Source: a virus (taxonomy: Duplodnaviria > Heunggongvirae > Uroviricota > Caudoviricetes). Taken from it: a stretch of DNA of 64,000 nt. Of the stretch, positions 12,846-37,536 are shown one piece after another. The DNA lies in IMG/VR virus record IMGVR_UViG_3300031992_000025, positions 33,932 to 97,931 of that record; one strand, given 5' to 3'. The position numbers and the translations under genes are program-made. The number at the start of each line of letters is the position of its first letter. Within the stretch, counting starts at the first letter, position 1. The notes below the pieces were generated by a model. That model was given only the letters and a program-made list of their open reading frames with translations, searched no databases and was not told the DNA's origin.

Positions 12846-12847
12846 AA

Positions 12848-12931
12848 AGAGCCTATACTTATTTCTTAATGGTTTTTGAAGGTTCGATTCCTTCATTACC
12901 CGCTTTGGGTGATGATATTAGTTAGGCCAAA
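12848..12931 (+). repeat. bipartite bulged-helix motif copy 4 enclosing a permuted tRNA minihelix
   Basis: AGAGCCTATACTTATTTCT + T-arm GAAGG-TTCGATT-CCTTC + acceptor 3' ATTACCC-G + CTTT + complementary 5' strand GGGTGAT + AGTTAGGCCAA. Confidence 0.65.
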
Positions 12932-12982
12932 GTTTATTTAGAAAGGAGAAAGCTTATGTAATTGTTAAAGGAGGACATAACG

Positions 12983-13234: not shown

Positions 13235-13239
13235 AATTA

Positions 13240-13253
13240 TTGTATAATATAAT
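13240..13253 (+). promoter_or_regulatory. extended -10 promoter TTGTATAATATAAT
   Basis: drives ncRNA candidate plus tRNA-Met cluster. Confidence 0.55.
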
Positions 13254-13254
13254 A

Positions 13255-13537
13255 GAGCTTACTTAACTGTTGGCTTAGAAGCAGCCATCATATAATGAGT
13301 GACCAACAGAACGTAAGGTGGTGCATCACTGAAATGAAGCGTCCCTAAATTACTGGATGAGAAATGGGACGTAAAACTGTCGGGAGTCAATAAAAATCTA
13401 TAATTTGGTAAGGGTGGTCAGAGTACCATTCTTAACTAAGAGCGTGCTGTAGGCACAGTAAATGCAGTATAATCAATGTTATAGAGTGCCCTAAGAGTCT
13501 TTGGCGTAGTAGCACATAAGTAAGTTCTTTATAACAT
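13255..13537 (+). ncRNA. candidate structured ncRNA (about 280 nt) transcribed from TTGTATAATATAAT promoter
   Basis: ORF-free, GC-richer than surroundings, directly upstream of tRNA-Met. Confidence 0.35.
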
Positions 13538-13613
13538 TGCGGGGTGCTAGCAGCGGTAGCTAACTGGGCTCATAACCCAGAGGTCGTAGGTTCGATTCCT
13601 ACCCCCGCGACCA
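13538..13613 (+). tRNA. tRNA-Met(CAT), initiator-like
   Basis: anticodon stem CTGGG/CCCAG (three G-C pairs next to loop) loop CTCATAA. Confidence 0.7.
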
Positions 13614-13617
13614 ATAT

Positions 13618-13732
13618 TGCATGATAGTCGAGTGGAAGAGACGACCGCATACATAAGCGGTGGACACAGCTGAAAGTAAATTCTAGATAGGAGTAAGCTA
13701 GAGCGGAGGTTCGATTCCTTCTCATGCGACCA
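13618..13732 (+). ncRNA. atypical 115-nt tRNA-like with 8-nt anticodon-type loop and about 45-nt extra arm
   Basis: acceptor TGCATGA/TCATGCG-A-CCA, T-arm GGAGG-TTCGATT-CCTTC, stem ACCGC/GCGGT with loop ATACATAA. Confidence 0.35.
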
Positions 13733-13734
13733 GA

Positions 13735-14010
13735 GGCAGGTTTTCATCGATTTTAGAGCCTCGCACATAAGAAAATCGATAGATAGACGGACTATGTACA
13801 AGATATGTCTAATCTAAAAAAGGAAAGGTTGTACACCAGAAATTTGGTCGGCTAGTTGGCGTAAACCTAGCAATAGGAGCGTTTGCAACAGACCCTCAAT
13901 AACTGCAGTGAGAGGGCAAGCACGAGCTTACAAGAAGAGACTGCGACGGATGAAATATTCCTAGAGCTCTTGAGCTGAGAGCACAAGGTTCACTGGGCAA
14001 AGAACAAAAC
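13735..14010 (+). ncRNA. candidate structured ncRNA (about 275 nt)
   Basis: ORF-free, 9-bp hairpin ATCGATTTT/AAAATCGAT with loop AGAGCCTCGCACATAAG. Confidence 0.3.
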
Positions 14011-14012
14011 AC

Positions 14013-14089
14013 GGACCGTTGGTGTAGTGGCCTTGCATGCTTCTCTGTCACGGAAGAGATCACGAGTTCGAATCTCGTACGGTCCGCCA
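14013..14089 (+). tRNA. tRNA-Asp(GTC)
   Basis: anticodon stem CTTCT/GGAAG loop CTGTCAC, acceptor GGACCGT/ACGGTCC. Confidence 0.75.
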
Positions 14090-14094
14090 TAGTT

Positions 14095-14202
14095 AGAGCC
14101 AATACTTATTTCTTAGCGAGGTAGCTCAGAGGTTAGAGCAGCAGATATTAATCTGAAGGTCGTAGGTTCAAGTCCTTCCCTTGCCAGGCCTAGTTTGGCC
14201 GA
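14095..14202 (+). repeat. bipartite bulged-helix motif copy 5 enclosing an anticodon-less tRNA-like unit
   Basis: AGAGCCAATACTTATTTCT ... GTTTGGCC (GCCAA/TTGGC covariation); insert 14115-14186 has acceptor, D-arm, T-arm and hairpin CAGAT-ATTA-ATCTG instead of anticodon loop. Confidence 0.65.
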
Positions 14203-14205
14203 TCT

Positions 14206-14282
14206 GGCTGGGTGGCCAAGCTGGTTAAGGCACAAAGCTCATACCTTTGGGATCGTCAGTTCAAATCTGACCCCAGCTACCA
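14206..14282 (+). tRNA. tRNA-Met/Ile2(CAT), elongator-type
   Basis: anticodon stem CAAAG/CTTTG loop CTCATAC. Confidence 0.7.
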
Positions 14283-14285
14283 TTT

Positions 14286-14363
14286 AGAGCTTATACTTAT
14301 TTCTTGAATGCTGTGGTTCGAATCCACCTTGCCTGTGGGGAGCGGAAAGTAGTTAAGCCAAAT
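14286..14363 (+). repeat. bipartite bulged-helix motif copy 6 enclosing tRNA 3'-fragment
   Basis: AGAGCTTATACTTATTTCT ... AGTTAAGCCAAAT (GCTTA/TAAGC covariation); insert has T-arm GTGG-TTCGAAT-CCAC. Confidence 0.65.
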
Positions 14364-14365
14364 AC

Positions 14366-14441
14366 GCACTCTTAACTCAACTGGGAGAGTGCTACCCTTA
14401 CAAGGTAGAAGTTGTAGGTCCGAGTCCTACAGAGTGCACCA
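14366..14441 (+). tRNA. tRNA-Val(TAC)
   Basis: anticodon stem CTACC/GGTAG loop CTTACAA. Confidence 0.8.
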
Positions 14442-14581
14442 TGGCATGTATGCAATTAGAAAACGCAACCTGCCGGTAAAGTAGGCGCTCCGAGTAGTCT
14501 CGAAGTAGGAGCTTTGTGGAATATTGCTAAATCGAGACTTTAGTAACAATATTCTAGGTGTAATTCCCACCATGCCAACCA
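14442..14581 (+). ncRNA. 140-nt tRNA-like RNA (acceptor TGGCATG/CATGCCA-A-CCA) with large internal insertion
   Basis: 7-bp terminal helix plus ACCA; T-loop-like GGTG-TAATTCC-CACC. Confidence 0.3.
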
Positions 14582-14585
14582 ATTT

Positions 14586-14660
14586 GCAGACGTAGGACAA
14601 TGGTTAGTCCATCGCCTTGCCAAGGCGAATATACGGGTTCGATTCCCGCCGTCTGCTCCA
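14586..14660 (+). tRNA. tRNA-Gly(GCC)
   Basis: anticodon stem TCGCC/GGCGA loop TTGCCAA. Confidence 0.7.
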
Positions 14661-14731
14661 CCAGGACAGATAAAGATTAGTTTCTTTATTAGGTTCTAAG
14701 GCTGGACAAATCGATAAAACCAGCCAGTTAT

Positions 14732-14806
14732 GCGGGTGTCGTCCAACGGTCAGGGCCTCTGCCTTCCAAGCAGAAGATACCGGTTCGATTCCGGCCACCC
14801 GCTCCA
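14732..14806 (+). tRNA. tRNA-Gly(TCC)
   Basis: anticodon stem TCTGC/GCAGA loop CTTCCAA. Confidence 0.75.
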
Positions 14807-14834
14807 TTAGCAGTATTTAAAAGGAGAAAAAACA

Positions 14835-14930
14835 ATGAAAACAATGAAACTCAGTCGTCTAAGTTGTCGAAGCTGTAAAGCTTGTTTTCGTTGTCTCAGT
14901 ATAAATACCGCGTTAGCTCAGCTGGATTAG
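14835..14930 (+). CDS. Cys-rich micro-ORF (31 aa, C-x2-C-x2-C-x2-C) reading into tRNA-Arg
   Basis: strong RBS AAAAGGAGAAAAAACA-ATG. Confidence 0.25.
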   Translation: MKTMKLSRLSCRSCKACFRCLSINTALAQLD

Positions 14931-14984
14931 AGCATTTGGCTACGAACCAAAAGGTCGAGGGTCCGAATCCTTCACGCGGTGCCA
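14907..14984 (+). tRNA. tRNA-Arg(ACG)
   Basis: anticodon stem TTTGG/CCAAA loop CTACGAA. Confidence 0.75.
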
Positions 14985-14985
14985 A

Positions 14986-15060
14986 GCTTTGGTAGCCAAG
15001 TGGTTAAGGCTTCGGTCTGCAACACCGACATCGTGGGTTCGAATCCCACCCAAAGCTCCA
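14986..15060 (+). tRNA. tRNA-Cys(GCA)
   Basis: anticodon stem TCGGT/ACCGA loop CTGCAAC. Confidence 0.8.
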
Positions 15061-15095
15061 AAATCTAGCTTTTTATGTTGTATAATATAATAGTT

Positions 15096-15173
15096 CCTCC
15101 CGTAGCTTAGTCAGGTTAAAGCGAACGCCTTATAAGCGTTAGATCGGTGGTTCAAATCCACCCAGGAGGACCA
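15096..15173 (+). tRNA. tRNA-Ile(TAT)
   Basis: anticodon stem AACGC/GCGTT loop CTTATAA; preceded by promoter TTGTATAATATAAT. Confidence 0.6.
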
Positions 15174-15248
15174 TCAAGCTAGTTATTTGCCTGTCAGAAG
15201 CCCTGTTAGAGGAAGCTGGGCTTATAATTAGCTTATTTTAATAAAGAG

Positions 15249-15845
15249 GTGCTTATGGAAATTAGATTTGTTGATGAAAGCAAAGAAGCCACTGGTAAAG
15301 TAAAAGAGGCACAAGAAGCATTAGATGAGCTCATTGATAAAAAGTCTGGTGAAGCTAAGGAAAATCCAGATTATTTAGCATTAATGGCAAAATATAAAAA
15401 AAGCTTAACTAATATTAATAAAGATGCTTGCGGCAGTCCTTGGGAATGGAGTTGGGGCTTAGACTATTTTGTTGAATTTCTTCGTTTTATGCAAGAATAT
15501 TATAAATTAGGCATTAATGTTTGGGCAATGGAGAGACGAGATGAAGATCCTAAAAAATATAAAAATTATCCAACTAGATATGAGAGTATTTCTAAAGCTC
15601 TTAGCTACTATGATAAGTGGCAAAATTTAGAAGAAGAATATATTACAGTAATTGATCACCCAGAGACACGAAAAACACATGAAAATGATGATGGAACAAT
15701 TACTGTTGATGATCTTGGCTTTCATTGTGAATATAAATTTGGTTCTGCTAAGAAAACATATAGAAAACTTCATAAGGATCAAAAGAAATATAAAAAGTTA
15801 TTTTTTAAAACTGTAATGAACTATTTAGAAGAATGGTGGGATTAA
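15249..15845 (+). CDS. hypothetical protein
   Basis: RBS AAAGAGGTGCTT-ATG. Confidence 0.5.
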   Translation: MLMEIRFVDESKEATGKVKEAQEALDELIDKKSGEAKENPDYLALMAKYKKSLTNINKDACGSPWEWSWGLDYFVEFLRFMQEYYKLGINVWAMERRDEDPKKYKNYPTRYESISKALSYYDKWQNLEEEYITVIDHPETRKTHENDDGTITVDDLGFHCEYKFGSAKKTYRKLHKDQKKYKKLFFKTVMNYLEEWWD

Positions 15846-15883
15846 TTAAGTCTCATTGAAAATCTCACTGAAGAAAACTTGCT

Positions 15884-15971
15884 GGAGGCATGGAGTAATG
15901 GTATCTCATCACCCTGCTAAGGTGACCATCGGGCAACTGATGTCCGCGTTCGAGTCGCGGTGCCTCCGCCA
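15884..15971 (+). tRNA. tRNA-Ser(GCT)
   Basis: anticodon stem TCACC/GGTGA loop CTGCTAA, long variable arm. Confidence 0.8.
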
Positions 15972-15973
15972 TA

Positions 15974-16306
15974 TTGAAAGGAAATTTTATGAAAGCATAT
16001 TTTATAGCAACTGCAAATGATTGTAAAAAAGATGAGCTTGGTTGGTTAGACTGGGGTAAATCTTTACGTGTTGTTGGTTTCTTTGAAGACATGGAAACTG
16101 CAAAAAAAGCAGTAGAAGAAAATTGGGGAGATATATATGAAGATGGTTATTATAAATATGCTATTATAGAAGAAAGAGAAGATGGTCTATATTCTCATTG
16201 TGAAAGCCCATTATTCTATAAGTGGGAAGGCACAATAAAAGATGGTGGCTATAAACAAATAGAAAGGCCAGAAGCTACAAAAGGCTTTTGTAATTTCACA
16301 ATCTAG
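15974..16306 (+). CDS. hypothetical protein
   Basis: RBS GAAAGGAAATTTT-ATG. Confidence 0.5.
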   Translation: MKGNFMKAYFIATANDCKKDELGWLDWGKSLRVVGFFEDMETAKKAVEENWGDIYEDGYYKYAIIEEREDGLYSHCESPLFYKWEGTIKDGGYKQIERPEATKGFCNFTI

Positions 16307-16308
16307 TT

Positions 16309-16392
16309 GCCCAGATGGTGGAATGGTAGACACCCGTGGCTTAGAACCACGTGCCGAAAGGCGTGCAGGTTCAAATCCTGTTCTGGGCACCA
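16309..16392 (+). tRNA. tRNA-Leu(TAG)
   Basis: anticodon stem CGTGG/CCACG loop CTTAGAA, long variable arm. Confidence 0.8.
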
Positions 16393-16399
16393 TTATTCT

Positions 16400-16485
16400 G
16401 CGCGAGTGATGAAATGGTAGACATGTGAGTCTAAGAAGCTCATGCCAGCAATGGTGTGTGGGTTCAAGTCCCACCTTGCGCACCA
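16400..16485 (+). tRNA. tRNA-Leu(AAG), type II, A34
   Basis: anticodon stem TGAGT/GCTCA loop CTAAGAA, long variable arm; anticodon assignment tentative. Confidence 0.5.
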
Positions 16486-25072: not shown

Positions 25073-25150
25073 GGGGGCGCATGTTCTAAGGGCAAGCGAG
25101 ACTGCTTTGCAAGCAGACTGTTGTGGGTTCGATTCCCTTCGTTTCCACCA
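25073..25150 (+). tRNA. tRNA-Ala(TGC)-like
   Basis: acceptor GGGGGCG/CGTTTCC with G3-U70 wobble, anticodon loop TTTGCAA, enlarged D region. Confidence 0.5.
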
Positions 25151-25203
25151 ATATGTAATAATATTTGCAGCGCAAGTTGTGTCCCAAATATTTGCTAAAT
25201 TAA

Positions 25204-25217
25204 TTGTATAATATAAT
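25204..25217 (+). promoter_or_regulatory. extended -10 promoter TTGTATAATATAAT
   Basis: upstream of HNH endonuclease gene. Confidence 0.55.
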
Positions 25218-25229
25218 GAGGCATTTATT

Positions 25230-25835
25230 ATGAGAAAAACAATTGATGATATTAAAAAACAAATTTGGGAGAATTCATTGCATACCTGTGAATATTTAAG
25301 TGGTGAAGCAAAACCAGGTAAAAAAATTCATGTAAGATGCATAATTCATAATGAAGAGTTTGATGTAAGTTATGATACTATTCGTAAATCTACTAGAAAA
25401 CATCATATTTGTCCTAAATGTAAAGCTGAAGATGATGCAAAAGATAAGGTAAAACTTATTTGCGATTATTGTGGTAAAGAGTATTATGTTGCAAAAAGTA
25501 AGTCTACTAAATCAGATTATCATTTCTGTTGTAGAGCTTGTAAAGATTCTGCACAAAAGATTAATTCTGGAGAAAAATTTAATGAATTAAGACCAGATCA
25601 TTATGGAACTGGAACAACAACTTACAGAGATGCAGCATTTATAGCTTATCCACATAAATGTGCAATTTGTGGTTGGGCTGAGGATGAAGATGTGCTTGAA
25701 GTTCATCATATTGATGAAAATAGAGCAAATGCAAGTTTAGACAATTTAATTATATTATGTCCAACTTGTCATAGAAAATTATCTATTCATAAATATTATC
25801 TTACTGATGATAGAAAAAGCATTATTAAAAAATAA
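25230..25835 (+). CDS. HNH homing endonuclease with Cys-rich zinc-binding N-terminal region
   Basis: EVHHIDENRANASLDNLIILCPTCH (HNH motif); multiple CxxC pairs. Confidence 0.65.
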   Translation: MRKTIDDIKKQIWENSLHTCEYLSGEAKPGKKIHVRCIIHNEEFDVSYDTIRKSTRKHHICPKCKAEDDAKDKVKLICDYCGKEYYVAKSKSTKSDYHFCCRACKDSAQKINSGEKFNELRPDHYGTGTTTYRDAAFIAYPHKCAICGWAEDEDVLEVHHIDENRANASLDNLIILCPTCHRKLSIHKYYLTDDRKSIIKK

Positions 25836-25846
25836 TGTAAATTTAT

Positions 25847-25923
25847 GGGCTATTAGTTCAGTCTAGGAGAACGCCCGCCCTGCAAGCGGGAGGTCATCGG
25901 AGCGGAGCCGATATGGTCCACCA
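25847..25923 (+). tRNA. tRNA-Ala(TGC)-like with atypical T-loop
   Basis: acceptor GGGCTAT/ATGGTCC incl. G3-U70, anticodon stem CCCGC/GCGGG loop CCTGCAA, T-loop AGCGGAG. Confidence 0.4.
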
Positions 25924-25927
25924 AATT

Positions 25928-26001
25928 GCCCCTGTAGTACAATGGTAGTACAGTTGACTTGTAATCATCCGATGGCCGTTCGATTCGACCCTGGGGCACC
26001 A
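25928..26001 (+). tRNA. tRNA-Thr(TGT)
   Basis: acceptor GCCCCTG/CTGGGGC, anticodon loop CTTGTAA. Confidence 0.7.
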
Positions 26002-26005
26002 AAAT

Positions 26006-26081
26006 GGGGCTGTAGCTCAATTGGGAGAGCGCCGCGTTAGCATCGCGGAGGTTGCGGGATCGTTCCCCGTTAGTTCCACCA
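26006..26081 (+). tRNA. tRNA-Ala(AGC), A34
   Basis: anticodon stem CCGCG/CGCGG loop TTAGCAT; acceptor GGGGCTG/TAGTTCC with G3-U70. Confidence 0.5.
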
Positions 26082-26166
26082 ATTCATGCCATGGAAGGAA
26101 AACCATATAAACCCTTACAGCTTCGTTAATATCAGACGTAGGTATTAAAGAGTTAAGCTGAATTAT

Positions 26167-26243
26167 CCGGAGTTAGTTCAGCTTGGTAGAACACCTGATT
26201 TGGGATCAGGGGGTCGTGGGTTCGAATCCCGCATTCCGGACCA
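26167..26243 (+). tRNA. tRNA-Pro(TGG)
   Basis: anticodon stem CCTGA/TCAGG loop TTTGGGA, acceptor CCGGAGT/ATTCCGG. Confidence 0.75.
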
Positions 26244-26247
26244 TTAT

Positions 26248-26370
26248 AGAACCTGTGCTTATTTCTAATAGGGCAAGCAGGTTGTCGCTGGTTCGAATCC
26301 AGCCTTCTCCACCATTAATTGGGGAAGTAGCTCAGTTGGTAGAGCACCCGCAAAATATTAGCCAGGTCAT
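26248..26370 (+). repeat. bipartite bulged-helix motif copy 8 enclosing permuted tRNA halves (3' half, linker, 5' half)
   Basis: AGAACCTGTGCTTATTTCT + T-arm GCTGG-TTCGAAT-CCAGC + CTTCTCC-A-CCA (ends 26314) + TTAATT + GGGGAAG-TA-GCTC-AGTTGGTA-GAGC-A-CCCGC (26321-26351) + partner GCCAGGT (26361-26367); acceptor strands GGGGAAG/CTTCTCC fully complementary (G3-U70). Confidence 0.65.
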
Positions 26371-26373
26371 ATT

Positions 26374-26449
26374 GCACCTTTAGCTCAGTTGGGAGAGCAT
26401 ATCCTTGACGTGGATAGGGTCGTAGGTTCGAGCCCTGCAAGGTGCACCA
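26374..26449 (+). tRNA. tRNA-Val(GAC)
   Basis: anticodon stem TATCC/GGATA loop TTGACGT. Confidence 0.75.
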
Positions 26450-26453
26450 TTAT

Positions 26454-26531
26454 GCTCCTCTAGCCCAACTGGCAGAGGCGGTAAGCTCAAACCTTACTTA
26501 TGTCTCGGTTCGAATCCGAGGGGGAGTACCA
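26454..26531 (+). tRNA. tRNA with anticodon CAA but short (type I) variable arm
   Basis: anticodon stem GTAAG/CTTAC loop CTCAAAC; acceptor GCTCCTC/GGGGAGT with G-U pairs. Confidence 0.45.
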
Positions 26532-26576
26532 AAAATGCAAAATTTGCAAAAATGTTATACTAAAGGAGAAAAAGTT

Positions 26577-26657
26577 ATGATGCAAATGAACAGAAAAAAT
26601 ATCAAGAGCAGAAAAACCAAAAGATTTGGTTCATTTAGTCATGGCTTAATTCATTAA
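26577..26657 (+). CDS. micro-ORF (26 aa, basic)
   Basis: RBS AAAGGAGAAAAAGTT-ATG; followed by terminator. Confidence 0.25.
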   Translation: MMQMNRKNIKSRKTKRFGSFSHGLIH

Positions 26658-26690
26658 GATTATAAAGGACGTTAGTTAACGTAATATAAT

Positions 26691-26720
26691 GCCGAGTGGT
26701 TAAGCCGCCCGGCATTTTTT
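26691..26720 (+). terminator. rho-independent terminator
   Basis: GCCGAGTGG-TTAAG-CCGCCCGGC-ATTTTTT. Confidence 0.55.
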
Positions 26721-26863
26721 CTAGGATTACGTTAGCGCGACGGACAAGAATTACTTATGCGAATTCCTTCTTAGAAAAAAATCTCCTTGTCTTCTAATTG
26801 AATAAGATATAGACCTCCTAAGTCTATGATCAGAGTTTAAATCTCTGCAAGGAGTCCATATAT

Positions 26864-26938
26864 ACCGCCATAGTACAACGGATAGTACAGTAGCCTTCTA
26901 AGCTTCTGATCCGGGTTCGATTCCTGGTGGCGGTGCCA
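26864..26938 (+). tRNA. tRNA-Arg(TCT)
   Basis: anticodon loop CTTCTAA, acceptor ACCGCCA/TGGCGGT. Confidence 0.7.
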
Positions 26939-26940
26939 TT

Positions 26941-27010
26941 AGAGCCTATGCTTATTTCTAGCTCAACGAGAGCGTCAAACATTTAATTTGAAGGTATAGC
27001 TAGGCCAAAA
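26941..27010 (+). repeat. bipartite bulged-helix motif copy 9
   Basis: AGAGCCTATGCTTATTTCT ... TAGCTAGGCCAAAA (AC to GC paired by GT to GC change). Confidence 0.65.
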
Positions 27011-27014
27011 TTAT

Positions 27015-27092
27015 GCACCGTCGGTCGCAAGGTGTGACACTCGACTTTTAATCGAGGTATCAGGATGGGTTCGATTCCCTCACGGTGCACCA
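27015..27092 (+). tRNA. tRNA-Lys(TTT)
   Basis: anticodon stem CTCGA/TCGAG loop CTTTTAA. Confidence 0.75.
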
Positions 27093-27096
27093 ATAT

Positions 27097-27171
27097 GCAC
27101 CCTTAGCCAAGCGGTATGGCCTACGACTTTTAATCGTATTATCAGGTGTTCGACTCACCTAGGGTGTACCA
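27097..27171 (+). tRNA. tRNA-Lys(TTT), second copy
   Basis: anticodon stem TACGA/TCGTA loop CTTTTAA. Confidence 0.75.
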
Positions 27172-27174
27172 GTA

Positions 27175-27252
27175 TGCTCCGTTGGCGCAATTAGGTAGCG
27201 CAAGATACTCTTAATATCTGGGTTACAGGTTCGATTCCTGTACGGAGCACCA
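27175..27252 (+). tRNA. tRNA-Lys(CTT)
   Basis: anticodon stem AGATA/TATCT loop CTCTTAA. Confidence 0.8.
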
Positions 27253-27310
27253 ATAAAATATTTTGCATTTGACTTAAAATTATTTGCTAAATTAATTGAG
27301 GTTCAAAATT

Positions 27311-28123
27311 ATGGCAAATTATATAAGTCACACTGCTTGAAATAAAGGCTTAACCAAAGAAACCGATAGTCGTTTAGCAAAAACAGCTTTATTACAAAGT
27401 AAAGTTAAAAAAGGTAAACCAAATCATCCACAAACTGCTGAAACAAGAGCAAAAATATCAGCTGCTAGAAAAAAATACATAGCAGAGCATCCAGATCAAG
27501 TTCCATTTAAAATGCACCATTCATCTAAAGAAAGTTTTCCAGAAAGATATTTTAGACTTTGACTTAAAAAAGAAAAATTATTAGAAGCACAAGAACTACA
27601 GATTGATAGATATACATTAGATTTTGCTTGGCCAGATAAAAAGATTTATTTAGAAATTGATGGAAATCAGCATAAGTTAGATTGAATGCAAGAGCATGAT
27701 AAAATTAGAACTGATTATTTAAATACTTTAGGTTGAACATGTATTGGTAGAATAGATTGATCTTGATATAAAGCTTTGTGCACAAAAGAAAAGCATAAAT
27801 ATTTACAAAACATAAAAGCAGCAATTGAGCAAGCTAGTTTTATAGAAAAATTTATATCAAAAAAAGACTTAGCTTTACAAAAACGTCAAAAGCTTATTGA
27901 AGCTGGATTTGTTATGAAAGATGGCAGAACAGCTCCATGAATGTTATCTAATAATGAATGGCAAAGACGTTTACAGCTAATACTAGATAGTAATATAGAC
28001 TTAACAAAATTTGGCTGGAAAGAACAAGTACAAAAAATAACGAATTTAACTCGTAGCCAATTAAACGATACAATAGAGCATTTTCCAGAACATTTTACAA
28101 AAATCTATATTAGAGGCAAATAA
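27311..28123 (+). CDS. homing endonuclease-like protein: NUMOD3-type DNA-binding motifs plus DUF559/Vsr-like PD-(D/E)XK nuclease domain (about 10 in-frame TGA)
   Basis: HTAWNKGLTKETDSRLAKTA and KPNHPQTAETRAKISAARKK (NUMOD3-like); DFAWPDKKIYLEIDGNQH...LGWTCIGRIDW; TGA codons fall at conserved Trp-like positions (GW motif). Confidence 0.65.
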
Positions 28124-28205
28124 ATTATTGTATAATATATTGTGGTTGAGATATGAGTTTTGGTAGTTTTGTGCCACGCATGCGGAAATAAAAACTACTA
28201 TATAT

Positions 28206-28281
28206 GCCGACTTAGCTCAGCTGTTAGAGCAATTCACTAGTAATGAATAGGTCGGGGGTTAGAATCCCTCAGTCGGCACCA
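28206..28281 (+). tRNA. tRNA-Thr(AGT), A34
   Basis: anticodon stem ATTCA/TGAAT loop CTAGTAA, acceptor GCCGACT/AGTCGGC, T-loop TTAGAAT. Confidence 0.6.
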
Positions 28282-30362: not shown

Positions 30363-31157
30363 ATGGACAAAGCTATTATTGAATTTGGAAAACGAATGAA
30401 CCAAGCAGAAGATAAAGTTTTGCTTGTTGAGTATGCAGAGGGTGCTAAGCAAGTTTTAGACCTTGGTGCTGGTACTGGTAAAATTAGTAGAGATATTGCT
30501 GAAAAGTGGGGAGCACATTGTGATGCAGTAGATCTACAGTTTAAAGAGGAGCTCCAAAACTCTGATAAAGTTACTTATTATAGCATGGACATTAATACTT
30601 TTTTAGCTACAACTGAAAAGAAGTATGATTGTGTCATTTTAAGTGCCATTTTACATGAATTATCTAATGAATATTTAGAGCAAATGTTTGTTCATTTACA
30701 AAAAGTATTAGCAACTAATGCTAGAATTCTTATTAGAGAGCCATTTTATGATTATACTTTAGGTCCAGTTAAAGATTTAAATAAATTTGTAGAATTAGTT
30801 CAAAATAAATTACCAGCAGGTAAGACTATTGAATTTGCTCAAACTAGTAAATTACATTCTGGTAAACCATTAGATATTACTGATATGATTGGAATTGATT
30901 GGGTTAATCTATGCTTTACTATTTCTTATGGTGAAGCTAGCTGGGAAAGAGAAAAACATGAGCTAAGATATGCTCGCGATTTAAATTGGTGTAAAGGAAT
31001 TTTTAATTTTTCTCAAAGACCATTTACAGGGTTCCAAGTTTATCCAGTTTTAGATAAAACATATAGACAACATTTTATAAATGTTGGTATTCCTGGTGAA
31101 GCATTTGATTTAATTCAATACACAGGAATGATTGTTATTATTGACTATTCAAAGTAG
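30363..31157 (+). CDS. class I SAM-dependent methyltransferase
   Basis: VLDLGAGTGKIS motif I, acidic motif II CDAVDL, motif IV DCVILSAILHE. Confidence 0.7.
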   Translation: MDKAIIEFGKRMNQAEDKVLLVEYAEGAKQVLDLGAGTGKISRDIAEKWGAHCDAVDLQFKEELQNSDKVTYYSMDINTFLATTEKKYDCVILSAILHELSNEYLEQMFVHLQKVLATNARILIREPFYDYTLGPVKDLNKFVELVQNKLPAGKTIEFAQTSKLHSGKPLDITDMIGIDWVNLCFTISYGEASWEREKHELRYARDLNWCKGIFNFSQRPFTGFQVYPVLDKTYRQHFINVGIPGEAFDLIQYTGMIVIIDYSK

Positions 31158-31228: not shown

Positions 31229-32800
31229 ATGGATGTAGGACAAATTATCGGAATAGTTGTTGGCGGAGTAGCATTACTTCTCTTAATCATCTTTTTTGCT
31301 TGTGCATATACAAAAGCAGGACCAGATGAAGCCATCATGATCTCTGGCGCAGGCAAGAGAAAAATTTTAAGAGGAAAAGCTGGCTGGAGATTGCCATTCT
31401 TACAAAGAAAAGATAAATTATCTCTAAAAGTGTTCCAAGTTGACATTAAGACTCGTGAATCAATTCCAACTAATGAATTTATTAATATTAATGTTGATGG
31501 TGTTGCGAACTTAAAAGTATCTAGTGATCCAGAATTACTTGAAAGAGCCTTTGAAGCTACACTTGGTATGGGCCAAGAGGACTTAATTGAACAAGTCAAG
31601 CAAGTTCTTGAGGGTAATATGCGTGAAATTATCGGTACTGTCGGTATTAGACAACTTGTTCAAGACCGTAAAGGTGTTGCTGAGGCTGTTAAGGAAAATG
31701 TTATTCCAGATATGAGTAAATTAGGCCTCGAATTAGTTAATTTTAATATTCAAAACTTCTCAGACAATAATCATGTCATTGAAAACTTAGGTATTGATAA
31801 TATTTCTCAAATCAGCAAAGAAGCTGCTATTGCTAAAGCAAATGCTGAAAGAGATGTTACTATTGCTCGTGCTGAAGCAGCAAAACAAGCTAATGAAGCT
31901 GAAGTTTTATCAAAAACTGCTATTGTTCAAAAGAACACAGAATATAGTCTTAAAGAGTCTGAATTAAAGATTAAAACAGATACAGCTAAAGCTGATGCTG
32001 ATGCTGCTTATAAAATTCAAGCTCAAAAGAGACAAGAAGAAATTAATACTGCTACAGTTAATGCTGAAATTTCTAAGAGAGAACGTGAAGTTGAACTTGG
32101 AAATAAAGAAGTTGAATTAGCAGAAAAGAAACTTGCTGCTACTGTTAATAAGAAAGCTGATGCAGATAAATATGCTGCAGAAAAAGAAGCTGAAGCAGAA
32201 TTATACAGACGTCAAAAGAAAGCTGAAGCTGAACTTATTGAAGCTCAAAGACAAGCTGAAAAACTTAAAGTTGCCGCTGAAGCTGAAAAACTTGCTCGTA
32301 AAGAAAAAGCTGATGCTGTTGCTATCGAAGCTGAAGCTCAAAGAGTTTCTCGTGCTAAAGCTGCTGAAGCTATTAAGTTAGAAGCTGAAGCTAATAAACA
32401 AGCCGCTCTTGCTGAAGCTGAAGGTATTAAAGCAAAAGGTGAAGCTGAAGCTACTGCAACTAAAGAAAAAGCAGAAGCTATGAAGGCATTCAATGATGCT
32501 GCTACATTAAAACTTGTTTTAGACAGCGGTGTCTTACCAGAGACTGTCAGAGCTTACTCTGAACCAATTGCTGCTGCATTAGGTCAAATTGATGGAATCA
32601 CTATGTATGGTTCTGGCAACGAAGCTAAACTTGTTGAGAACATTCAAAAGTCTGGTGATCAAATCTTTGAGGGCTTAAACAAAACATTAGGCATTGACCT
32701 TAAATCTGTTCTTCTTGGCTATCTTGGACCAAAAGTCTTAGGTGCTGTTGCTGAAACTCCAACTAAGAAAACAAAAGGCAAAACAGATTTAACTGAATAG
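31229..32800 (+). CDS. flotillin/SPFH (band 7) domain protein with long Ala/Glu/Lys coiled-coil
   Basis: N-terminal TM, SPFH core (KTRESIPTNEFININVDGVANLKV...), about 200-aa EA/KA-repeat coiled coil, flotillin-like C-terminus. Confidence 0.7.
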   Translation: MDVGQIIGIVVGGVALLLLIIFFACAYTKAGPDEAIMISGAGKRKILRGKAGWRLPFLQRKDKLSLKVFQVDIKTRESIPTNEFININVDGVANLKVSSDPELLERAFEATLGMGQEDLIEQVKQVLEGNMREIIGTVGIRQLVQDRKGVAEAVKENVIPDMSKLGLELVNFNIQNFSDNNHVIENLGIDNISQISKEAAIAKANAERDVTIARAEAAKQANEAEVLSKTAIVQKNTEYSLKESELKIKTDTAKADADAAYKIQAQKRQEEINTATVNAEISKREREVELGNKEVELAEKKLAATVNKKADADKYAAEKEAEAELYRRQKKAEAELIEAQRQAEKLKVAAEAEKLARKEKADAVAIEAEAQRVSRAKAAEAIKLEAEANKQAALAEAEGIKAKGEAEATATKEKAEAMKAFNDAATLKLVLDSGVLPETVRAYSEPIAAALGQIDGITMYGSGNEAKLVENIQKSGDQIFEGLNKTLGIDLKSVLLGYLGPKVLGAVAETPTKKTKGKTDLTE

Positions 32801-32822: not shown

Positions 32823-32850
32823 AAAACCCAGCTATTTTGCTGGGTTTTTA
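32823..32850 (+). terminator. rho-independent terminator
   Basis: AAAACCCAGC-TATTTT-GCTGGGTTTTTA. Confidence 0.7.
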
Positions 32851-32864
32851 TTGTATAATATAAT
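32851..32864 (+). promoter_or_regulatory. extended -10 promoter TTGTATAATATAAT
   Basis: after terminator, upstream of Thg1-like gene. Confidence 0.55.
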
Positions 32865-32877
32865 GAGGTATTTTAAT

Positions 32878-33789
32878 ATGATTAGAGATGCATTAGGCGA
32901 TAGAATGAAAACTTATTATGAGGAAGTTACTAAGACTAGACTTACTCGTAGAACTCCAGTTGTTATTAGGCTAGATGGCTGTCATTTTCATACATTTACG
33001 AGAGGATTTAAAAAGCCATTCGATGAAGTTTTAGTTAAGTCTATGCAAGCAACCATGAAATATCTTTGTGAAAATATTCAAGGTTGTGTTTTAGGTTATA
33101 CTCAGTCTGATGAAATTACTCTTGTTTTAGTTGATTATAAAGAATTGAATACAAGCGCTTGGTTTGATTATGAAGTTCAAAAGATGGTTTCAGTTTCAGC
33201 CGCTCTTGCAACTTATGCTTTTAATAAATATTTTAATGAGTACTATTTAGAAAGTATTGCAGAAAAAGGCGAAGTTGATAAATATGATTTAGCTCATGAT
33301 ACCGCAAGAAGAAAAGGTGCATATTTTGATAGTAGAGTATTCAATATTCCAAAAGAAGAAGTTACTAATTGTGTTCTTTGGAGACAACTTGATGCAGAGA
33401 GAAATTCAATTAATTCATTAGCTCAATCTTTATTTAGCCACAAATCACTTCAAGGTTTAAATCTTAAAGATACGAAAGCTAAAATTGAAACTGAAGCTGG
33501 AATTATTTGGGGAAATTTACCAACAACTCAAAAACGTGGATGTTGCTGTATTAAAAACTATTATTTCTTAGACAAAGAAGGCAATAGATATGAAACAGCT
33601 AATATCTGTACATCAGAAGAAGATGGTACACATTATGTTGATGCCGGATTTAATGAAGAAAAGAATGTCTATGAACTTTATCCTATTGAAGTTACTCTTC
33701 ATAGTGAGTGGGTAGTAGATGAAGATATACCACAATTTAAAGATAGTGGTAGGAATTATATTGAAAACTTAGTTTTTGTTGGTGAATAA
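32878..33789 (+). CDS. Thg1-like protein (tRNA-His guanylyltransferase family 3'-5' nucleotidyltransferase)
   Basis: TPVVIRLDGCHFHTFTRGFKKPFDEVLVKSMQATMKYLCENIQGCVLGYTQSDEITLVL matches Thg1/TLP N-terminal catalytic core (RLDG.NFH.F....KP.D, GQSDE). Confidence 0.75.
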   Translation: MIRDALGDRMKTYYEEVTKTRLTRRTPVVIRLDGCHFHTFTRGFKKPFDEVLVKSMQATMKYLCENIQGCVLGYTQSDEITLVLVDYKELNTSAWFDYEVQKMVSVSAALATYAFNKYFNEYYLESIAEKGEVDKYDLAHDTARRKGAYFDSRVFNIPKEEVTNCVLWRQLDAERNSINSLAQSLFSHKSLQGLNLKDTKAKIETEAGIIWGNLPTTQKRGCCCIKNYYFLDKEGNRYETANICTSEEDGTHYVDAGFNEEKNVYELYPIEVTLHSEWVVDEDIPQFKDSGRNYIENLVFVGE

Positions 33790-33790
33790 T

Positions 33791-34090
33791 ATGACTAAGC
33801 TAGAAAAACTTAATGCTTTAAATGAATTATTAAAAGCTGTTTATGAACAAGGCTGGCGTATTGGTGCTAGCTGGAATAATGATAAATTTAATGAATTGTT
33901 TGACATAAATGGTTATTTAAAAGATGACTTAAAAATTGAGAAGGATCTAAGAGCTAAAATAGATAAACTTCTTATTATGCTTGGCTTTGAAATTAATGAC
34001 TTAATTGTATATACAAAAGAAGATTTGTCTATGCATGAAAATGATTGGGAATATATTGCACCAGTTTTAGAGTTCAAGGAGAAAGAATAA
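33791..34090 (+). CDS. hypothetical protein
   Basis: ATG overlapping previous stop. Confidence 0.4.
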   Translation: MTKLEKLNALNELLKAVYEQGWRIGASWNNDKFNELFDINGYLKDDLKIEKDLRAKIDKLLIMLGFEINDLIVYTKEDLSMHENDWEYIAPVLEFKEKE

Positions 34091-34425
34091 TGGGAAAGAA
34101 ATTAAAATTAATAGCTGGAGAATCAGTTAATTATATTGATTTAGATTTAACTTGGTGGATTGATGCTTATGATGAAGACAATGGAAAGTTTCCTTATAAA
34201 ATAAGATTTAGGGGTGCTGACGGAGGCAATTCTCAGACAATAGGTTGGAAAAAGGAAAAGGATAGAGATAACTATCTTGAAAAATTAGAAAAGCTTCTTC
34301 ATCTAGTTACTTTAGAGGATGGTGAGGAAGAGGAAGAAGTAGTTGTTCCTGAACCAAAACTTCCAAAGCAGCCTAATGAGGACGTGTTAGCATCAGACTA
34401 TGACCCAATGGATGCAATTAAATAA
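34090..34425 (+). CDS. hypothetical protein
   Basis: RBS AAGGAGAAAGAATA-ATG. Confidence 0.45.
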   Translation: MGKKLKLIAGESVNYIDLDLTWWIDAYDEDNGKFPYKIRFRGADGGNSQTIGWKKEKDRDNYLEKLEKLLHLVTLEDGEEEEEVVVPEPKLPKQPNEDVLASDYDPMDAIK

Positions 34426-34504
34426 GTTGTATAATATATAAAAATAACATTCAAAAGTCCCAAAAGGACGATTTGTAGCTTAAAAGGCGAAGGAGAATTA
34501 GAAA

Positions 34505-35377
34505 ATGTCAATGTTTAGTGGTAAATGTGATTTATATGATCACATAATGGGAACTGCTGGTTGGTATGACCGAAATGGAAATCCAGTTAAAATGGGAGAT
34601 TCAGGTGTTGGTGCATACTATTCAGACGAGTATAGAGATTTTTTAGAATTTAAGAAAAGAACAGGTGGAGTTTTACATCAACATAAGGTTTTAACAGTTA
34701 CACCTTGGAATCATGATGATGCTGTAAAGCTTTGTCCAGAATTAGAAGTAATTGAACATAAGAGAATTGTTCCAGATAAACGTCAAAAATCTGGGCAAAG
34801 AGAAGATGTTTATTATACTTATAAATATTGGGGAAAAGAATATACCTTAAAAGAATTAAATAAGCATAAAGTTTATATTACTATTGACATTCATTTTGAT
34901 ACTTTACTTGATTTAATTCCTTATTACCCATATATTGTTACAATGTCTTGTAGTAATAACGGCAAACAAACTGTATTTATTTCAAGTCAAAGTTTTGTTG
35001 ATGAAGAAGTAGATGACCATTTAAAGCATGGTTATTATTCAGAGTTTTGGCAATATTATAAAAAACAATTACAAGAGCATTATCAAGAAATTGTTTTAAG
35101 ATATTATAACCCAGCTGGAAGAGAAATAAAAGAAAACATTACTTTTATGAAAGAAACAGCTGAAGATGGAACTGAAAAGTATATTGGTAGAACTTTATAC
35201 CCAATAGATGAAAACTTTGAGCCAAAGTGGACAACTAATAAATCAAGATGGACTTCACCAAAAAGAATTGATGAGCATCGAATTGAAATGAGTAAACAAG
35301 ATTTTGAAGGTTACTTAGGCGCCACTCAAGAAGTTTATTATGTTCAAAAGAAAGACTATGAATTATATTTGGGGTAA
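34505..35377 (+). CDS. hypothetical protein
   Basis: RBS AAGGAGAATTAGAAA-ATG after promoter. Confidence 0.5.
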   Translation: MSMFSGKCDLYDHIMGTAGWYDRNGNPVKMGDSGVGAYYSDEYRDFLEFKKRTGGVLHQHKVLTVTPWNHDDAVKLCPELEVIEHKRIVPDKRQKSGQREDVYYTYKYWGKEYTLKELNKHKVYITIDIHFDTLLDLIPYYPYIVTMSCSNNGKQTVFISSQSFVDEEVDDHLKHGYYSEFWQYYKKQLQEHYQEIVLRYYNPAGREIKENITFMKETAEDGTEKYIGRTLYPIDENFEPKWTTNKSRWTSPKRIDEHRIEMSKQDFEGYLGATQEVYYVQKKDYELYLG

Positions 35378-35382
35378 TAACT

Positions 35383-35625
35383 ATGGATTATAATAGACAA
35401 TATTTTAGTAAAGATGATGTAAAAGCAGGTTTACATATTAAATTTATGCAATTTTTATTAGACAATTTTGAGTCTAAAGAATATCATCTTGATATGCATG
35501 TTTATCATGAAGACTGTGGTGCAATTATAGTTGAATGGATCAGACAGCTTTGGGATTATATTGATGATATGGGCAAATTTGTATTTCTTGCAGGCGATGA
35601 AGAAATTGTAAAAGAGGAATATTAA
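35383..35625 (+). CDS. hypothetical protein
   Basis: closely follows previous gene. Confidence 0.4.
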   Translation: MDYNRQYFSKDDVKAGLHIKFMQFLLDNFESKEYHLDMHVYHEDCGAIIVEWIRQLWDYIDDMGKFVFLAGDEEIVKEEY

Positions 35626-35628
35626 TGT

Positions 35629-35826
35629 ATGAAAAAATTTGTAAAAGTTTTATTAAATATTTTTTATACCATTATAGCTGTTATATTTGGGGTTGCAGGA
35701 GCAATTTGTCTAATACCACTTGCAGCTATTGGTTTAGTAATAAGCTTGCCAGCTTCAATTATAGCTGATATTTGGTTTCCACCAGATATTTATGAAATAG
35801 AAGAAAATAAAGAAAGTGAAGAATAA
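35629..35826 (+). CDS. small membrane protein
   Basis: hydrophobic core FYTIIAVIFGVAGAICLIPLAAIGLVISLPASI. Confidence 0.45.
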   Translation: MKKFVKVLLNIFYTIIAVIFGVAGAICLIPLAAIGLVISLPASIIADIWFPPDIYEIEENKESEE

Positions 35827-36752
35827 TGAAATATTTTATAGTAAGTGATATTCATAGTTTTTATTTAGAGCTAAGAAATGCTTTAAAGCTTGCTGGTTTT
35901 GAAAAAAACAATAAAAATCATACACTGATTGTTTGTGGCGATGTTTTTGATCGTGGACCAGATACAATGGGAGTATATAAATTTTTAACTTCAATTCCAA
36001 AGAAGAGATGTATTCTTGTACAGGGAAACCATGAGCTTTTATATAAAGAGCTTTTAAAAAAGAAATTTCCTGATAGCTATGATTTTAGTAATCATACTGT
36101 TGACACTTTCTGCCAGATAGCTGGTTATAGTGCAGAAATTATGACACCTGAATATTGGTACAAACTTGGGGAAGACCCATATGATAGAATTCAACAAGTC
36201 TGGCAAGAAATATTACGAGAAGTTAATCATAGCCAGGTTACAGACTGGCTATATAGTGACCAATGGAAACCTTGGTATGAAGTAGGAAATTTTATTTTTG
36301 TTCATAGCTTTATTCCACTTAGAAATGCAGACGGTTTACCAAGCTATTATATAAATAATCGTAGGTTTGAATATTTTAAAGACTGGCGTGAAACTGCAAC
36401 AAAGTTTGAATTAGAAGATGCAACCTGGGGGTGCCCATATCAGCAGTATCTTGATGGTTATTTTAAAGAAGAAGCCACTAACGGAAAGGTCCTTGTTTGT
36501 GGACACTGGGTAGTCACAGATTTTCGTAAATATATAAATAATAAAAAATATACTGATGATACAAGTATCTACTATTGGGACAATTTAATTGCTCTTGATT
36601 GTGGTGTTTGGCAATATAAAGGTTCAAAAGAATTTTATCACCCACAAAATGTCCTTGTTATCGATGATAAAGATTTTAAATGTTATGATCAATATAGCAC
36701 AGAGCTTGAGGAAGAGTCATCAGTTCCAAGAATAGAAACAGTTACAGAGTAA
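35826..36752 (+). CDS. calcineurin-like metallophosphoesterase
   Basis: SDIHS...CGDVFDRG...QGNHE motifs. Confidence 0.65.
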   Translation: MKYFIVSDIHSFYLELRNALKLAGFEKNNKNHTLIVCGDVFDRGPDTMGVYKFLTSIPKKRCILVQGNHELLYKELLKKKFPDSYDFSNHTVDTFCQIAGYSAEIMTPEYWYKLGEDPYDRIQQVWQEILREVNHSQVTDWLYSDQWKPWYEVGNFIFVHSFIPLRNADGLPSYYINNRRFEYFKDWRETATKFELEDATWGCPYQQYLDGYFKEEATNGKVLVCGHWVVTDFRKYINNKKYTDDTSIYYWDNLIALDCGVWQYKGSKEFYHPQNVLVIDDKDFKCYDQYSTELEEESSVPRIETVTE

Positions 36753-36753: not shown

Positions 36754-36782
36754 AAAAAGGGGTTTACAAAACCTCTTTTTTG
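36754..36782 (+). terminator. rho-independent terminator
   Basis: AAAAAGGGGTTTACAAAACCTCTTTTTTG. Confidence 0.55.
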
Positions 36783-36810: not shown

Positions 36811-37536
36811 ATGATTAGTGTTTTATATGACATTTTCAAAAAATGGAGTGCCAATGGGTCAGTTTATATTATAAGTGATCCACATTTTTCTGATGCCGAA
36901 AGCTTTGAATTTAGAAAAGCAAGTGGAAAATTACCAGAAGGTATTGAAACTATTGAAGACTTAGATAATTATATTATTAAGAATATTAATGCTGTTGCAA
37001 GTAAAAATGATACATTAATATGTTTGGGCGACGTCGGCAATAAAGAATGCATTACTAAGCTAAAAGCAGGTTATAAAGTTTTATTACTCGGTAACCATGA
37101 CCGTGGTGCAGACCACTATAAAAGAGCAATTGTTGATATTACAGATTTAAAAGCTAACTTAGCTAAATCAGTTAAAATACCAAAAGAGCTTTTTATGGGT
37201 GAACATGAATTAGATAAGCATGTAGTGTTTGATAATAAGCTATTTGATGAAGTTTATTCTGGACCACTAATGATTAGTGATAAGATTATTTTGTCTCATG
37301 AACCAATTATTCCTTGCCCAGACTATTTAGTTAACTTGTGTGGGCATGTTCATGCTAAAAATCATAAATTCAGAGTTGATAAACACCAGTATTATAACTT
37401 CTGTGCAGAAGCAATTGATTATAAGCCTGTCTCTCTTGGAGAGCTTATCAAAGAAGGAATTCTTAGTAAGGTAAAAGATATTCATAGAGTGACAGTTGAC
37501 GGTGCAATAGTCAGAAAAAAGAAAGCTAGCCATTAA
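36811..37536 (+). CDS. calcineurin-like metallophosphoesterase
   Basis: ISDPHFSD...LGDVGNKE...LLGNHDRG motifs. Confidence 0.6.
   Translation: MISVLYDIFKKWSANGSVYIISDPHFSDAESFEFRKASGKLPEGIETIEDLDNYIIKNINAVASKNDTLICLGDVGNKECITKLKAGYKVLLLGNHDRGADHYKRAIVDITDLKANLAKSVKIPKELFMGEHELDKHVVFDNKLFDEVYSGPLMISDKIILSHEPIIPCPDYLVNLCGHVHAKNHKFRVDKHQYYNFCAEAIDYKPVSLGELIKEGILSKVKDIHRVTVDGAIVRKKKASH

Follow-up and report, generated by a model that had tools for sequence, protein, structure and literature searches.

A phage gene for a bacterial-type Thg1-like protein, encoded with tRNA arrays and a healing-and-sealing ligase fusion, is a candidate for tRNA 5'-end repair

The gene examined here lies at positions 32878 to 33789 of a 64,000-nucleotide stretch from the genome of an uncultivated, tRNA-rich Caudoviricetes phage (IMG/VR record IMGVR_UViG_3300031992_000025, positions 33,932 to 97,931); "the window" denotes that whole stretch. 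Sequence comparison and structure prediction show that the gene encodes a bacterial-type Thg1-like protein (TLP) with a modelled Thg1 palm fold and an intact active site. By analogy with the Bacillus thuringiensis Thg1-like protein BtTLP, we consider it fairly probable that the phage protein is an active enzyme that would rebuild 5'-truncated tRNAs by templated addition and would make up the 5'-end branch of a set of phage tRNA maintenance functions.

The plus-strand open reading frame (ORF) ending at 33789 extends from 32851 if TTG is taken as the start and from 32878 if ATG is taken, in the ORF listing of the window. The ATG start is preferred. GAGG is found 9 nucleotides (nt) 5' of it, and the TTG coincides with the first base of a recurrent promoter-like motif, TTGTATAAT, directly 3' of a hairpin; the TTG start was dropped because it falls within that motif. 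The same product of 303 amino acids (aa) is present in public gene calls, since two other contigs, JGI 3300028833 (66.6 kilobases [kb]) and ENA ERZ27257202 (58 kb), encode exactly this protein. The ORF at 32878-33789 was confirmed as a real, intact gene. The gene and its flanking signals are as follows.

32823-32848, + strand: terminator-like hairpin (10-pair stem, then a T run) closing the upstream SPFH/flotillin gene
32851-32859, + strand: TTGTATAAT promoter-like motif before the TLP gene, recurrent in the window
32865-32868, + strand: ribosome-binding site GAGG, read from the sequence upstream of the TLP ATG
32878-33789, + strand: TLP coding sequence, 303 aa plus stop

The protein matched the Pfam Thg1 hidden Markov model (PF04446) with an E value of 2.1e-31 and 109 bits, far above the cut-off of 29.2, and the match joined residues 8-158 to profile positions 2-130 of 130. 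PHROG 4717 ("tRNA-His guanylyltransferase") was matched at 5.5e-84, while an NCBIfam profile search of the protein returned nothing relevant. The best match in the Protein Data Bank (PDB) was BtTLP (4KGK/4KGM; E = 1.2e-58, residues 4-230); residues 273-301 matched its C-terminal strand weakly and were not significant independently. Archaeal TLP and human, yeast, and Candida Thg1 were matched at 1e-7 to 2e-4. The values for human Thg1 (5.9e-7) and yeast Thg1 (2e-5), compared with 1.2e-58 for BtTLP, place the phage protein nearer to the characterized TLPs. The Thg1-like assignment made in the first-pass annotation thus holds for sequence, catalytic residues, and predicted fold, and the peptide strings that it quoted are present in the translation (VVIRLDGCHFHTF at residues 28-40, KPFDE at 46-50, and GYTQSDEITLVL at 73-84).

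Alignment of the active site equated E15, R31, D33, D78, and E79 of the phage TLP with E12, R28, D30, D75, and E76 of BtTLP, numbered as in the structure paper (PMC3701042). The three carboxylates, D33, D78, and E79, also aligned with D29, D76, and E77 of human Thg1, and R31 aligned with human R27. In the yeast enzyme, K44, S75, and N161 act in 5'-end activation, and R27, K96, and R133 act in nucleotidyl transfer. The phage TLP has K46, S77, K102, and R153 where the activation and transfer residues of the yeast/human enzymes are K44, S75, K96, and R133, and the counterpart of yeast N161 is either N164 or N176, both of which are invariant. Likewise invariant, in a 40-sequence alignment of the query with 39 metagenomic homologues at 58-89% identity, are E15, R31, D33, K46, S77, D78, E79, K102, and R153. 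The protein retains all residues known to coordinate the two catalytic metals, to activate the RNA 5' end, and to place the incoming NTP.

32959-33129, + strand: catalytic core, residues 28-84 (R31, D33, K46, S77, D78, and E79), from the BtTLP/human Thg1 alignment

The eukaryote-specific HINNLYN motif, whose His stacks on anticodon base G36 (PMC6471195), is absent. Yeast Thg1 WRYVDTHINNL is aligned to WRQLDAERNSI, so that the motif position reads ERNSINS in the phage TLP; in BtTLP it reads SKNSISM. With the motif absent, the protein is classed as a bacterial-type TLP and not as a true tRNA-His guanylyltransferase. The Pfam C-terminal profile Thg1C, which the first-pass annotation had named beside Thg1, did not match the protein, for which PF04446 was the only Pfam hit at E <= 1. 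The C-terminal half nevertheless aligns with BtTLP although the Thg1C model is unmatched.

An AlphaFold2 model built from the homologue alignment had a mean predicted local distance difference test (pLDDT) score of 82.9. When this model was compared with the PDB by Foldseek, the top 32 matches were all Thg1/TLP chains, the best being BtTLP chain 4kgm_B (E = 1.8e-22; template modeling score of 0.86, normalized to the target). Relative to BtTLP, two insertions were seen.

33253-33315, + strand: helical insertion of ~20 aa, residues ~126-146, from the BtTLP alignment gap and the AlphaFold2 model
33568-33693, + strand: beta-rich insertion of ~42 aa, residues ~231-272, absent in BtTLP, from the AlphaFold2 model

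Helices were modelled at residues 100-130 and 135-146, and the length of the first insertion varies among homologues. The second is placed between KRGxCCIK and a conserved C-terminal W278..D281..IP..F motif and was modelled as strands (a beta meander; block pLDDT, 83-91). It is hypervariable, and homologues of ~256 aa lack it. These two clade-specific insertions are the only structural novelty of the phage TLP.

The tRNA genes of the window bear directly on what such an enzyme might do. ARAGORN at default settings called 38 tRNA genes in two arrays, a permissive Rfam scan added a tRNA-Ala (25847-25920 in that scan) and a tRNA-like gene (13618-13729), and a divergent tRNA-His (called at 10722-10797) was found by ARAGORN at a lowered threshold only. 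The window contains 41 tRNA or tRNA-like genes in total, 40 of which encode CCA.

10158-16485, + strand: tRNA array 1, with 26 default ARAGORN genes, the tRNA-His, and one tRNA-like gene
10721-10797, + strand: divergent tRNA-His(GTG)
13618-13732, + strand: tRNA-like gene of 112-115 nt (Rfam, 31.9 bits)
14114-14187, + strand: aberrant tRNA-like gene (ARAGORN anticodon "tt"; Rfam register)
25073-28281, + strand: tRNA array 2, with 12 ARAGORN genes and one extra tRNA-Ala
25847-25923, + strand: extra tRNA-Ala(TGC) (permissive Rfam, 44 bits), missed by default ARAGORN

The extra tRNA-Ala has G3:U70 and a non-canonical T loop. The tRNA-like gene at 13618-13732 has a normal acceptor stem, T arm, and CCA, with an insertion of ~40 nt after the anticodon arm; its loop reads ATACATAA, and the anticodon is possibly CAT.

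Default ARAGORN and Rfam (RF00005) gave tRNAs for 19 amino acids in the window, with no tRNA-His among them; without the divergent gene, the phage set would seem short of tRNA-His only. That gene occupies the gap between tRNA-Tyr and tRNA-Phe. Its G-1 and its CCA are both encoded; G-1 pairs with C73, the next pair is U1:A72, the D arm is atypical, and the T loop reads TCCGACT. A homologue directly follows tRNA-Tyr in a related 225-kb contig (L003, 6072-6147). Together with a canonical tRNA-His from a third locus (L009), the two give a cloverleaf consensus with an 8-bp acceptor stem and compensatory change in 14 of 24 pairs, and G-1:C73 is kept in all three. A DNA search of IMG/VR for further copies of the divergent gene gave no matches.

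These genes raise the possibility of dedicated tRNA-His maintenance, in which the TLP would restore G-1 opposite C73 after cleavage by RNase P or a host nuclease at +1 rather than -1 and would thereby preserve charging by histidyl-tRNA synthetase. A conserved, divergent tRNA-His is found in both the window and L003, and its C73 is the base that a TLP needs as template; tRNA-His is the only window tRNA gene with G at position -1 (35 of the 41 genes have T); and BtTLP is reported to add a templated N-1 to tRNA-His (PMC3061083). However, G-1 is genomically encoded in 3/3 phage tRNA-His genes examined, so its addition is not required by default, and BtTLP is described in the same source as favouring repair of 5'-truncated tRNAs over -1 addition by 5-160 fold. 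The phage TLP also lacks the anticodon-reading motif, and most TLP loci have no nearby tRNA. Once the tRNA-His with its encoded G-1 appeared, the idea that the gene exists for de novo G-1 addition was demoted to a rival explanation, and we regard the tRNA-His reading as unlikely, if still credible.

No mismatch at acceptor pairs 1-3 was found in the bona fide tRNAs of the window, in which all such pairs are Watson-Crick or G:U; only the aberrant element at 14114-14187 departs from this. This contradicts a mitochondrial-style 5'-editing polymerase, which would rebuild acceptor-stem 5' ends after encoded mismatches are removed. DdiTLP3 does provide the one proven physiological TLP role outside tRNA-His maturation (PMC6471195), but editing of this type was rejected, given window tRNA genes free of 5' mismatches, and is very improbable here. 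Because pairs 1-3 contain no mismatch and G-1 is encoded, neither 5' editing nor G-1 addition is obligatory for the phage tRNAs, and general templated 5'-end repair is the best reading.

All genes of the window are on the + strand, and the promoter-like motif before the TLP gene recurs among them. TTGTATAAT occurs 19 times in the window, compared with 2.6 copies expected, and 0 of 100 shuffles reached 19. Eighteen of the 19 copies are on the + strand, all within 2098-36791, the half of the window devoted to tRNAs and RNA metabolism. The TTGTATAAT(ATA) copies usually lie just 3' of a terminator hairpin and 23-28 nt 5' of a start codon; TTTACA precedes some of them by ~17 nt.

2098, 32851, and 36783, + strand: TTGTATAAT sites before the ligase fusion, the TLP gene, and the second phosphoesterase gene
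10270, 12276, and 15078, + strand: TTGTATAAT sites before tRNA clusters; small RNAs are also preceded by the motif

Judged from this pattern, TTGTATAAT probably marks one temporal promoter class. The TLP gene would then belong to the same class as ~40 tRNA genes and the kinase-phosphatase-ligase, and it is this common class that leads us to read the TLP as a candidate 5'-end arm of a tRNA maintenance set. The motif at 32851 and a terminator at 36754-36780 appear to bound the TLP transcription unit. The other genes to which we refer are listed here.

660-1136, + strand: DUF5662 gene, window copy
2121-4406, + strand: AAA_33 kinase-Metallophos-RNA_lig_T4_1 fusion (the "Pnkp-ligase"), Pfam; Rnl1-type ligase
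8006-8353 and 8480-8797, + strand: PhoH-like ATPase split in two ORFs, matching the N- and C-terminal parts of the Pfam model
10898-11314, + strand: HAD_SAK_2 RNA-repair-associated phosphatase (Pfam E = 2.5e-28), within tRNA array 1
30363-31157, + strand: 264-aa S-adenosylmethionine (SAM) methyltransferase, generic SAM methyltransferase matches only
31229-32800, + strand: SPFH/flotillin gene directly 5' of the TLP gene (Pfam)
33791-36752, + strand: rest of the likely TLP transcription unit, five ORFs and then a metallophosphoesterase gene (gene calls)
35826-36752, + strand: 308-aa ApaH/lambda-phosphatase-like metallophosphoesterase (Pfam Metallophos E = 2e-13; PHROG NinI-like phosphatase)
36754-36780, + strand: terminator-like hairpin closing the TLP unit (hairpin search)
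36811-37536, + strand: second metallophosphoesterase (Pfam)

The ligase domain of the fusion matches fungal tRNA ligase structures in the PDB. The five ORFs 3' of the TLP gene have no functional annotation, one of them matching a PHROG of unknown function only, and the metallophosphoesterase that follows them has PDB matches to ApaH and lambda phosphatase but is of a generic type with weak similarity to ApaH. No Hen1 domain was detected in the methyltransferase at 30363-31157, and this gene was dropped as a Hen1 partner for the Pnkp-ligase since it resembles generic SAM methyltransferases only. The split PhoH gene could reflect a frameshift, an intervening element, or a pseudogene. The right-hand 27 kb of the window encodes a holin, carbohydrate-binding proteins, and repeat proteins. 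In the window, in the metagenomic relative L005 (6037-7536), and in Fusobacterium phage Fnu1 (gp144; L170, 9389-10198), a cultured, unrelated phage that shares this proximity, a gene of the SPFH/Band 7 (flotillin/prohibitin-like) family is found ~0.1-4 kb from the TLP gene; SPFH homologues also occur somewhere in the ±10-kb TLP loci L075, L078, and L081.

The first-pass annotation had placed the TLP gene alongside the Pnkp-ligase and suggested a dedicated tRNA maintenance module. The two genes are 28.5 kb apart and are therefore not alongside each other. A looser functional grouping of the TLP, the ligase fusion, and the tRNA clusters is partly supported by the shared promoter motif, by proximity in a relative, and by recurrent repair neighbours. 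In L003, whose TLP is 69% identical, a 31-tRNA array ends ~500 nt 5' of the TLP gene, which is followed by a DUF5662 gene, a methyltransferase gene, and the same ligase fusion, 8-9 kb off. In L005, the TLP gene has SPFH and DUF5662 genes upstream and is followed by an AAA_28 protein gene and, ~2 kb downstream, by a PF09414 RNA ligase gene. In L087 and L088, the TLP gene comes after tRNA arrays, with a Metallophos gene at a distance similar to that in the window. The DUF5662 gene recurs a few kilobases from the TLP gene in related contigs (L003, 11167-11766; L005, 5051-5644; and L086, 14077-14580 and 17443-18021).

Neighbours were surveyed within ±10 kb of 82 other TLP loci from IMG/VR, many of them from one study. 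Neighbour clustering identified a T4-type Pnkp (AAA_33 plus HAD_PNKP) within 6 kb of the TLP gene in 20 loci, a CCA-adding enzyme in 17, and metallophosphoesterases in 22. Searches with the window proteins (tblastn) found HAD_SAK_2 in 9 of the ±10-kb loci and the ligase fusion in 6. When the loci were dereplicated at 80% TLP identity, one or more of Pnkp, the CCA-adding enzyme, the ligase fusion, and HAD_SAK_2 lay near the TLP gene in 9 of 26 lineages. The window itself has no CCA-adding enzyme and no T4-type Pnkp.

A working mechanism for 5'-end repair can be framed from what is reported for BtTLP, which is template dependent and acts on tRNAs other than tRNA-His (PMC3061083; PMC3701042) and which activates a 5'-monophosphate with ATP or GTP before templated 3'-5' addition (PMC3061083, PMC3701042, PMC4820378). 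If the phage enzyme behaves similarly, it would bind a tRNA that has lost one or more 5' nucleotides and would activate the 5'-monophosphate with ATP or GTP or take a 5'-triphosphate directly. The missing nucleotides would then be added in the 3'-5' direction with the 3' strand of the acceptor stem as the Watson-Crick template, and on tRNA-His, the enzyme could also put back G-1 opposite C73. Where a nuclease had left a 5'-OH, we infer that a polynucleotide kinase could supply the 5'-phosphate. The maintenance set as a whole might guard phage tRNAs, and possibly those of the host, against nuclease damage in the infected cell, its biological purpose being presumably quality control or counter-defence for the large phage tRNA set.

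Several observations weigh against this proposal. We know of no natural source of 5'-truncated tRNAs in infection, and the two insertions could change the substrate choice of the enzyme. The Pnkp-ligase gene, 28.5 kb 5' of the TLP gene, is in a separate transcription unit; the nearest tRNA gene in the window is ~4.6 kb away; and the immediate operon partners of the TLP gene have no functional annotation. A general adjacency of TLP and tRNA genes is unsupported, as most of 80 TLP loci from IMG/VR are free of tRNA genes within 10 kb. The association with repair genes is a raw frequency, counted in TLP-positive loci alone.

The tRNA arrays also contain small RNA-like elements that might be considered as substrates. 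At least 11 elements of a Y RNA-like type are scattered among the tRNAs.

5400, 5546, 11918, 12848, 14095, 14286, 24824, 26250, 26941, and 28284 (starts near), + strand: Y RNA-like elements with a shared pattern
5061 (start near), + strand: variant Y RNA-like element; a related element is in L003, 5556-5682

The shared pattern is 5' AGAGCC-TAT-R-CTTATTTCT, a variable insert of 25-95 nt, and TAGYTAGGCC at the 3' end. Most of the elements begin right after a tRNA CCA end, and their closing stem covaries. The inserts are short hairpins, T-arm-only domains, or full circularly permuted tRNA-like domains, and the two permuted elements gave sub-threshold Rfam YrlA matches (38 and 33 bits). Scanning of 50 window ORFs against Pfam found no TROVE domain, and an Rsr/Ro60 partner for the elements was dropped on that account. 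The aberrant tRNA-like gene at 14114-14187 has a 6-nt anticodon loop (TATTAA) and an A1:C72 mismatch (Rfam register) and has no CCA. It is probably a Y RNA-like element rather than a decoding or suppressor tRNA, because it bears the 5' leader motif of that family.

It is conceivable that the TLP acts mainly on such non-tRNA RNAs, Y RNA-like or tRNA-like, or that it and the ApaH-like phosphoesterase encoded downstream together make and remove 5'-adenylylated RNA ends. The number of Y RNA-like elements among the tRNAs, some with tRNA-like domains, is in keeping with this idea, as are the metallophosphoesterase in the TLP transcription unit (with one at a similar distance in L087 and L088) and the broader RNA recognition of TLPs relative to Thg1 (PMC6471195). 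Yet in the permuted tRNA-like domains a loop closes the acceptor stem, which leaves no free 5' end for extension, and the metallophosphoesterase is generic, with little likeness to ApaH. We consider this explanation improbable, and tRNA 5'-end repair remains the preferred reading.

More tentatively, the TLP may be one arm of a co-regulated counter-defence regulon, in which it would specifically reverse the action of host nucleases that attack the tRNA acceptor stem on its 5' side or tRNA-His at G-1, with the tRNA arrays, the kinase-phosphatase-ligase, HAD_SAK_2, the phosphoesterases, and the Y RNA-like RNAs as the other arms; we judge this joint reading doubtful but worth stating. If true, it would give a first physiological role for a bacterial-type TLP and would imply an unrecognized class of defences that target tRNA 5' ends. 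The TLP did not match any PADLOC defence-system model at E <= 0.001, and its membership in a known anti-phage defence system was dropped.

Phage TLPs had been described in the first-pass annotation as rare. They are relatively uncommon, with homologues found by tblastn in 164 of 50,697 phage records, all at <60% identity. However, a PHROG family exists, at least 572 confirmed stretches in IMG/VR have a TLP match, and the majority of the 164 records, which include Bacillus, Prevotella, Caulobacter, Mycobacterium, Erwinia, Vibrio, Aeromonas, and Fusobacterium phages, already carry the annotation tRNA-His guanylyltransferase. In a large protein database, 8,000 candidates were scored, all with E <= 1e-5 and the best 78% identical, and several of these relatives are on contigs of 200-270 kb. 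The closest bacterial and archaeal relatives, with one genome per species, are at most 53% identical over their full length and come mostly from gut/rumen Clostridia metagenome-assembled genomes and isolates. A megablast search of the region against the phage genome collection gave no match and thus no near relative at the DNA level. Phage genome papers of 2013 (PMC3601020) and 2018 (PMC6292376) call the gene "highly unusual." Phage TLPs, noted since 2013, are uncommon yet not new. We found no functional study of a phage TLP in the literature, and the words "phage" and "virus" do not occur in a 2019 review of the Thg1 enzyme family.

As a sequence finding, the gene is an expected member of a catalogued phage gene family, to which it adds a new, insertion-bearing sequence in a context that is informative and not unprecedented. 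The context of the TLP at this locus is clear, with ~40 phage tRNAs, an RNA ligase fusion of the healing-and-sealing kind, and a promoter class in common, and the locus is a lead of some value on the physiological role of bacterial-type TLPs. Cultured phages that encode a TLP exist, namely, Bacillus phages Bcp1 and Bc431v3 and Fusobacterium phage Fnu1.

Among known systems, BtTLP is the closest by both sequence (E = 1.2e-58) and structure, with 32-37% identity in the Foldseek alignments, and the two proteins have in common the catalytic carboxylates, arginines, and lysine as well as the TLP-type replacement of HINNLYN. The phage TLP is 58 aa longer, with the helical (126-146) and beta (231-272) insertions, and is encoded by a phage that carries tRNA arrays, whereas BtTLP is the product of a bacterial chromosome gene. 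The phage genes of PHROG 4717, such as Bc431v3 gp143, Bcp1_164, Fnu1 gp147, and that of Staphylococcus phage PMBT8, are members of this family, align at 37-41% identity across 98-99% of the query, and sit in large phages that often bear tRNAs; their products, of ~237-250 aa, lack the insertions. Eukaryotic Thg1 (yeast and human) shares the fold and the two-metal active site. It differs in that E values are only 1e-5 to 1e-7, in that the phage TLP lacks HINNLYN and a Thg1C match, and in that C73 and an encoded G-1 in the phage tRNA-His make non-templated G-1 addition opposite A73 irrelevant. As in the T4 Pnkp/Rnl1 and bacterial Pnkp-type repair systems, the kinase-metallophosphatase-Rnl1-type ligase fusion of the window would be expected to heal and seal broken tRNAs. 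No Hen1 partner was found here, and 28.5 kb separates the TLP and ligase genes. The T4 paradigm has no TLP; in the phage described here, the TLP would add a third end-repair activity.

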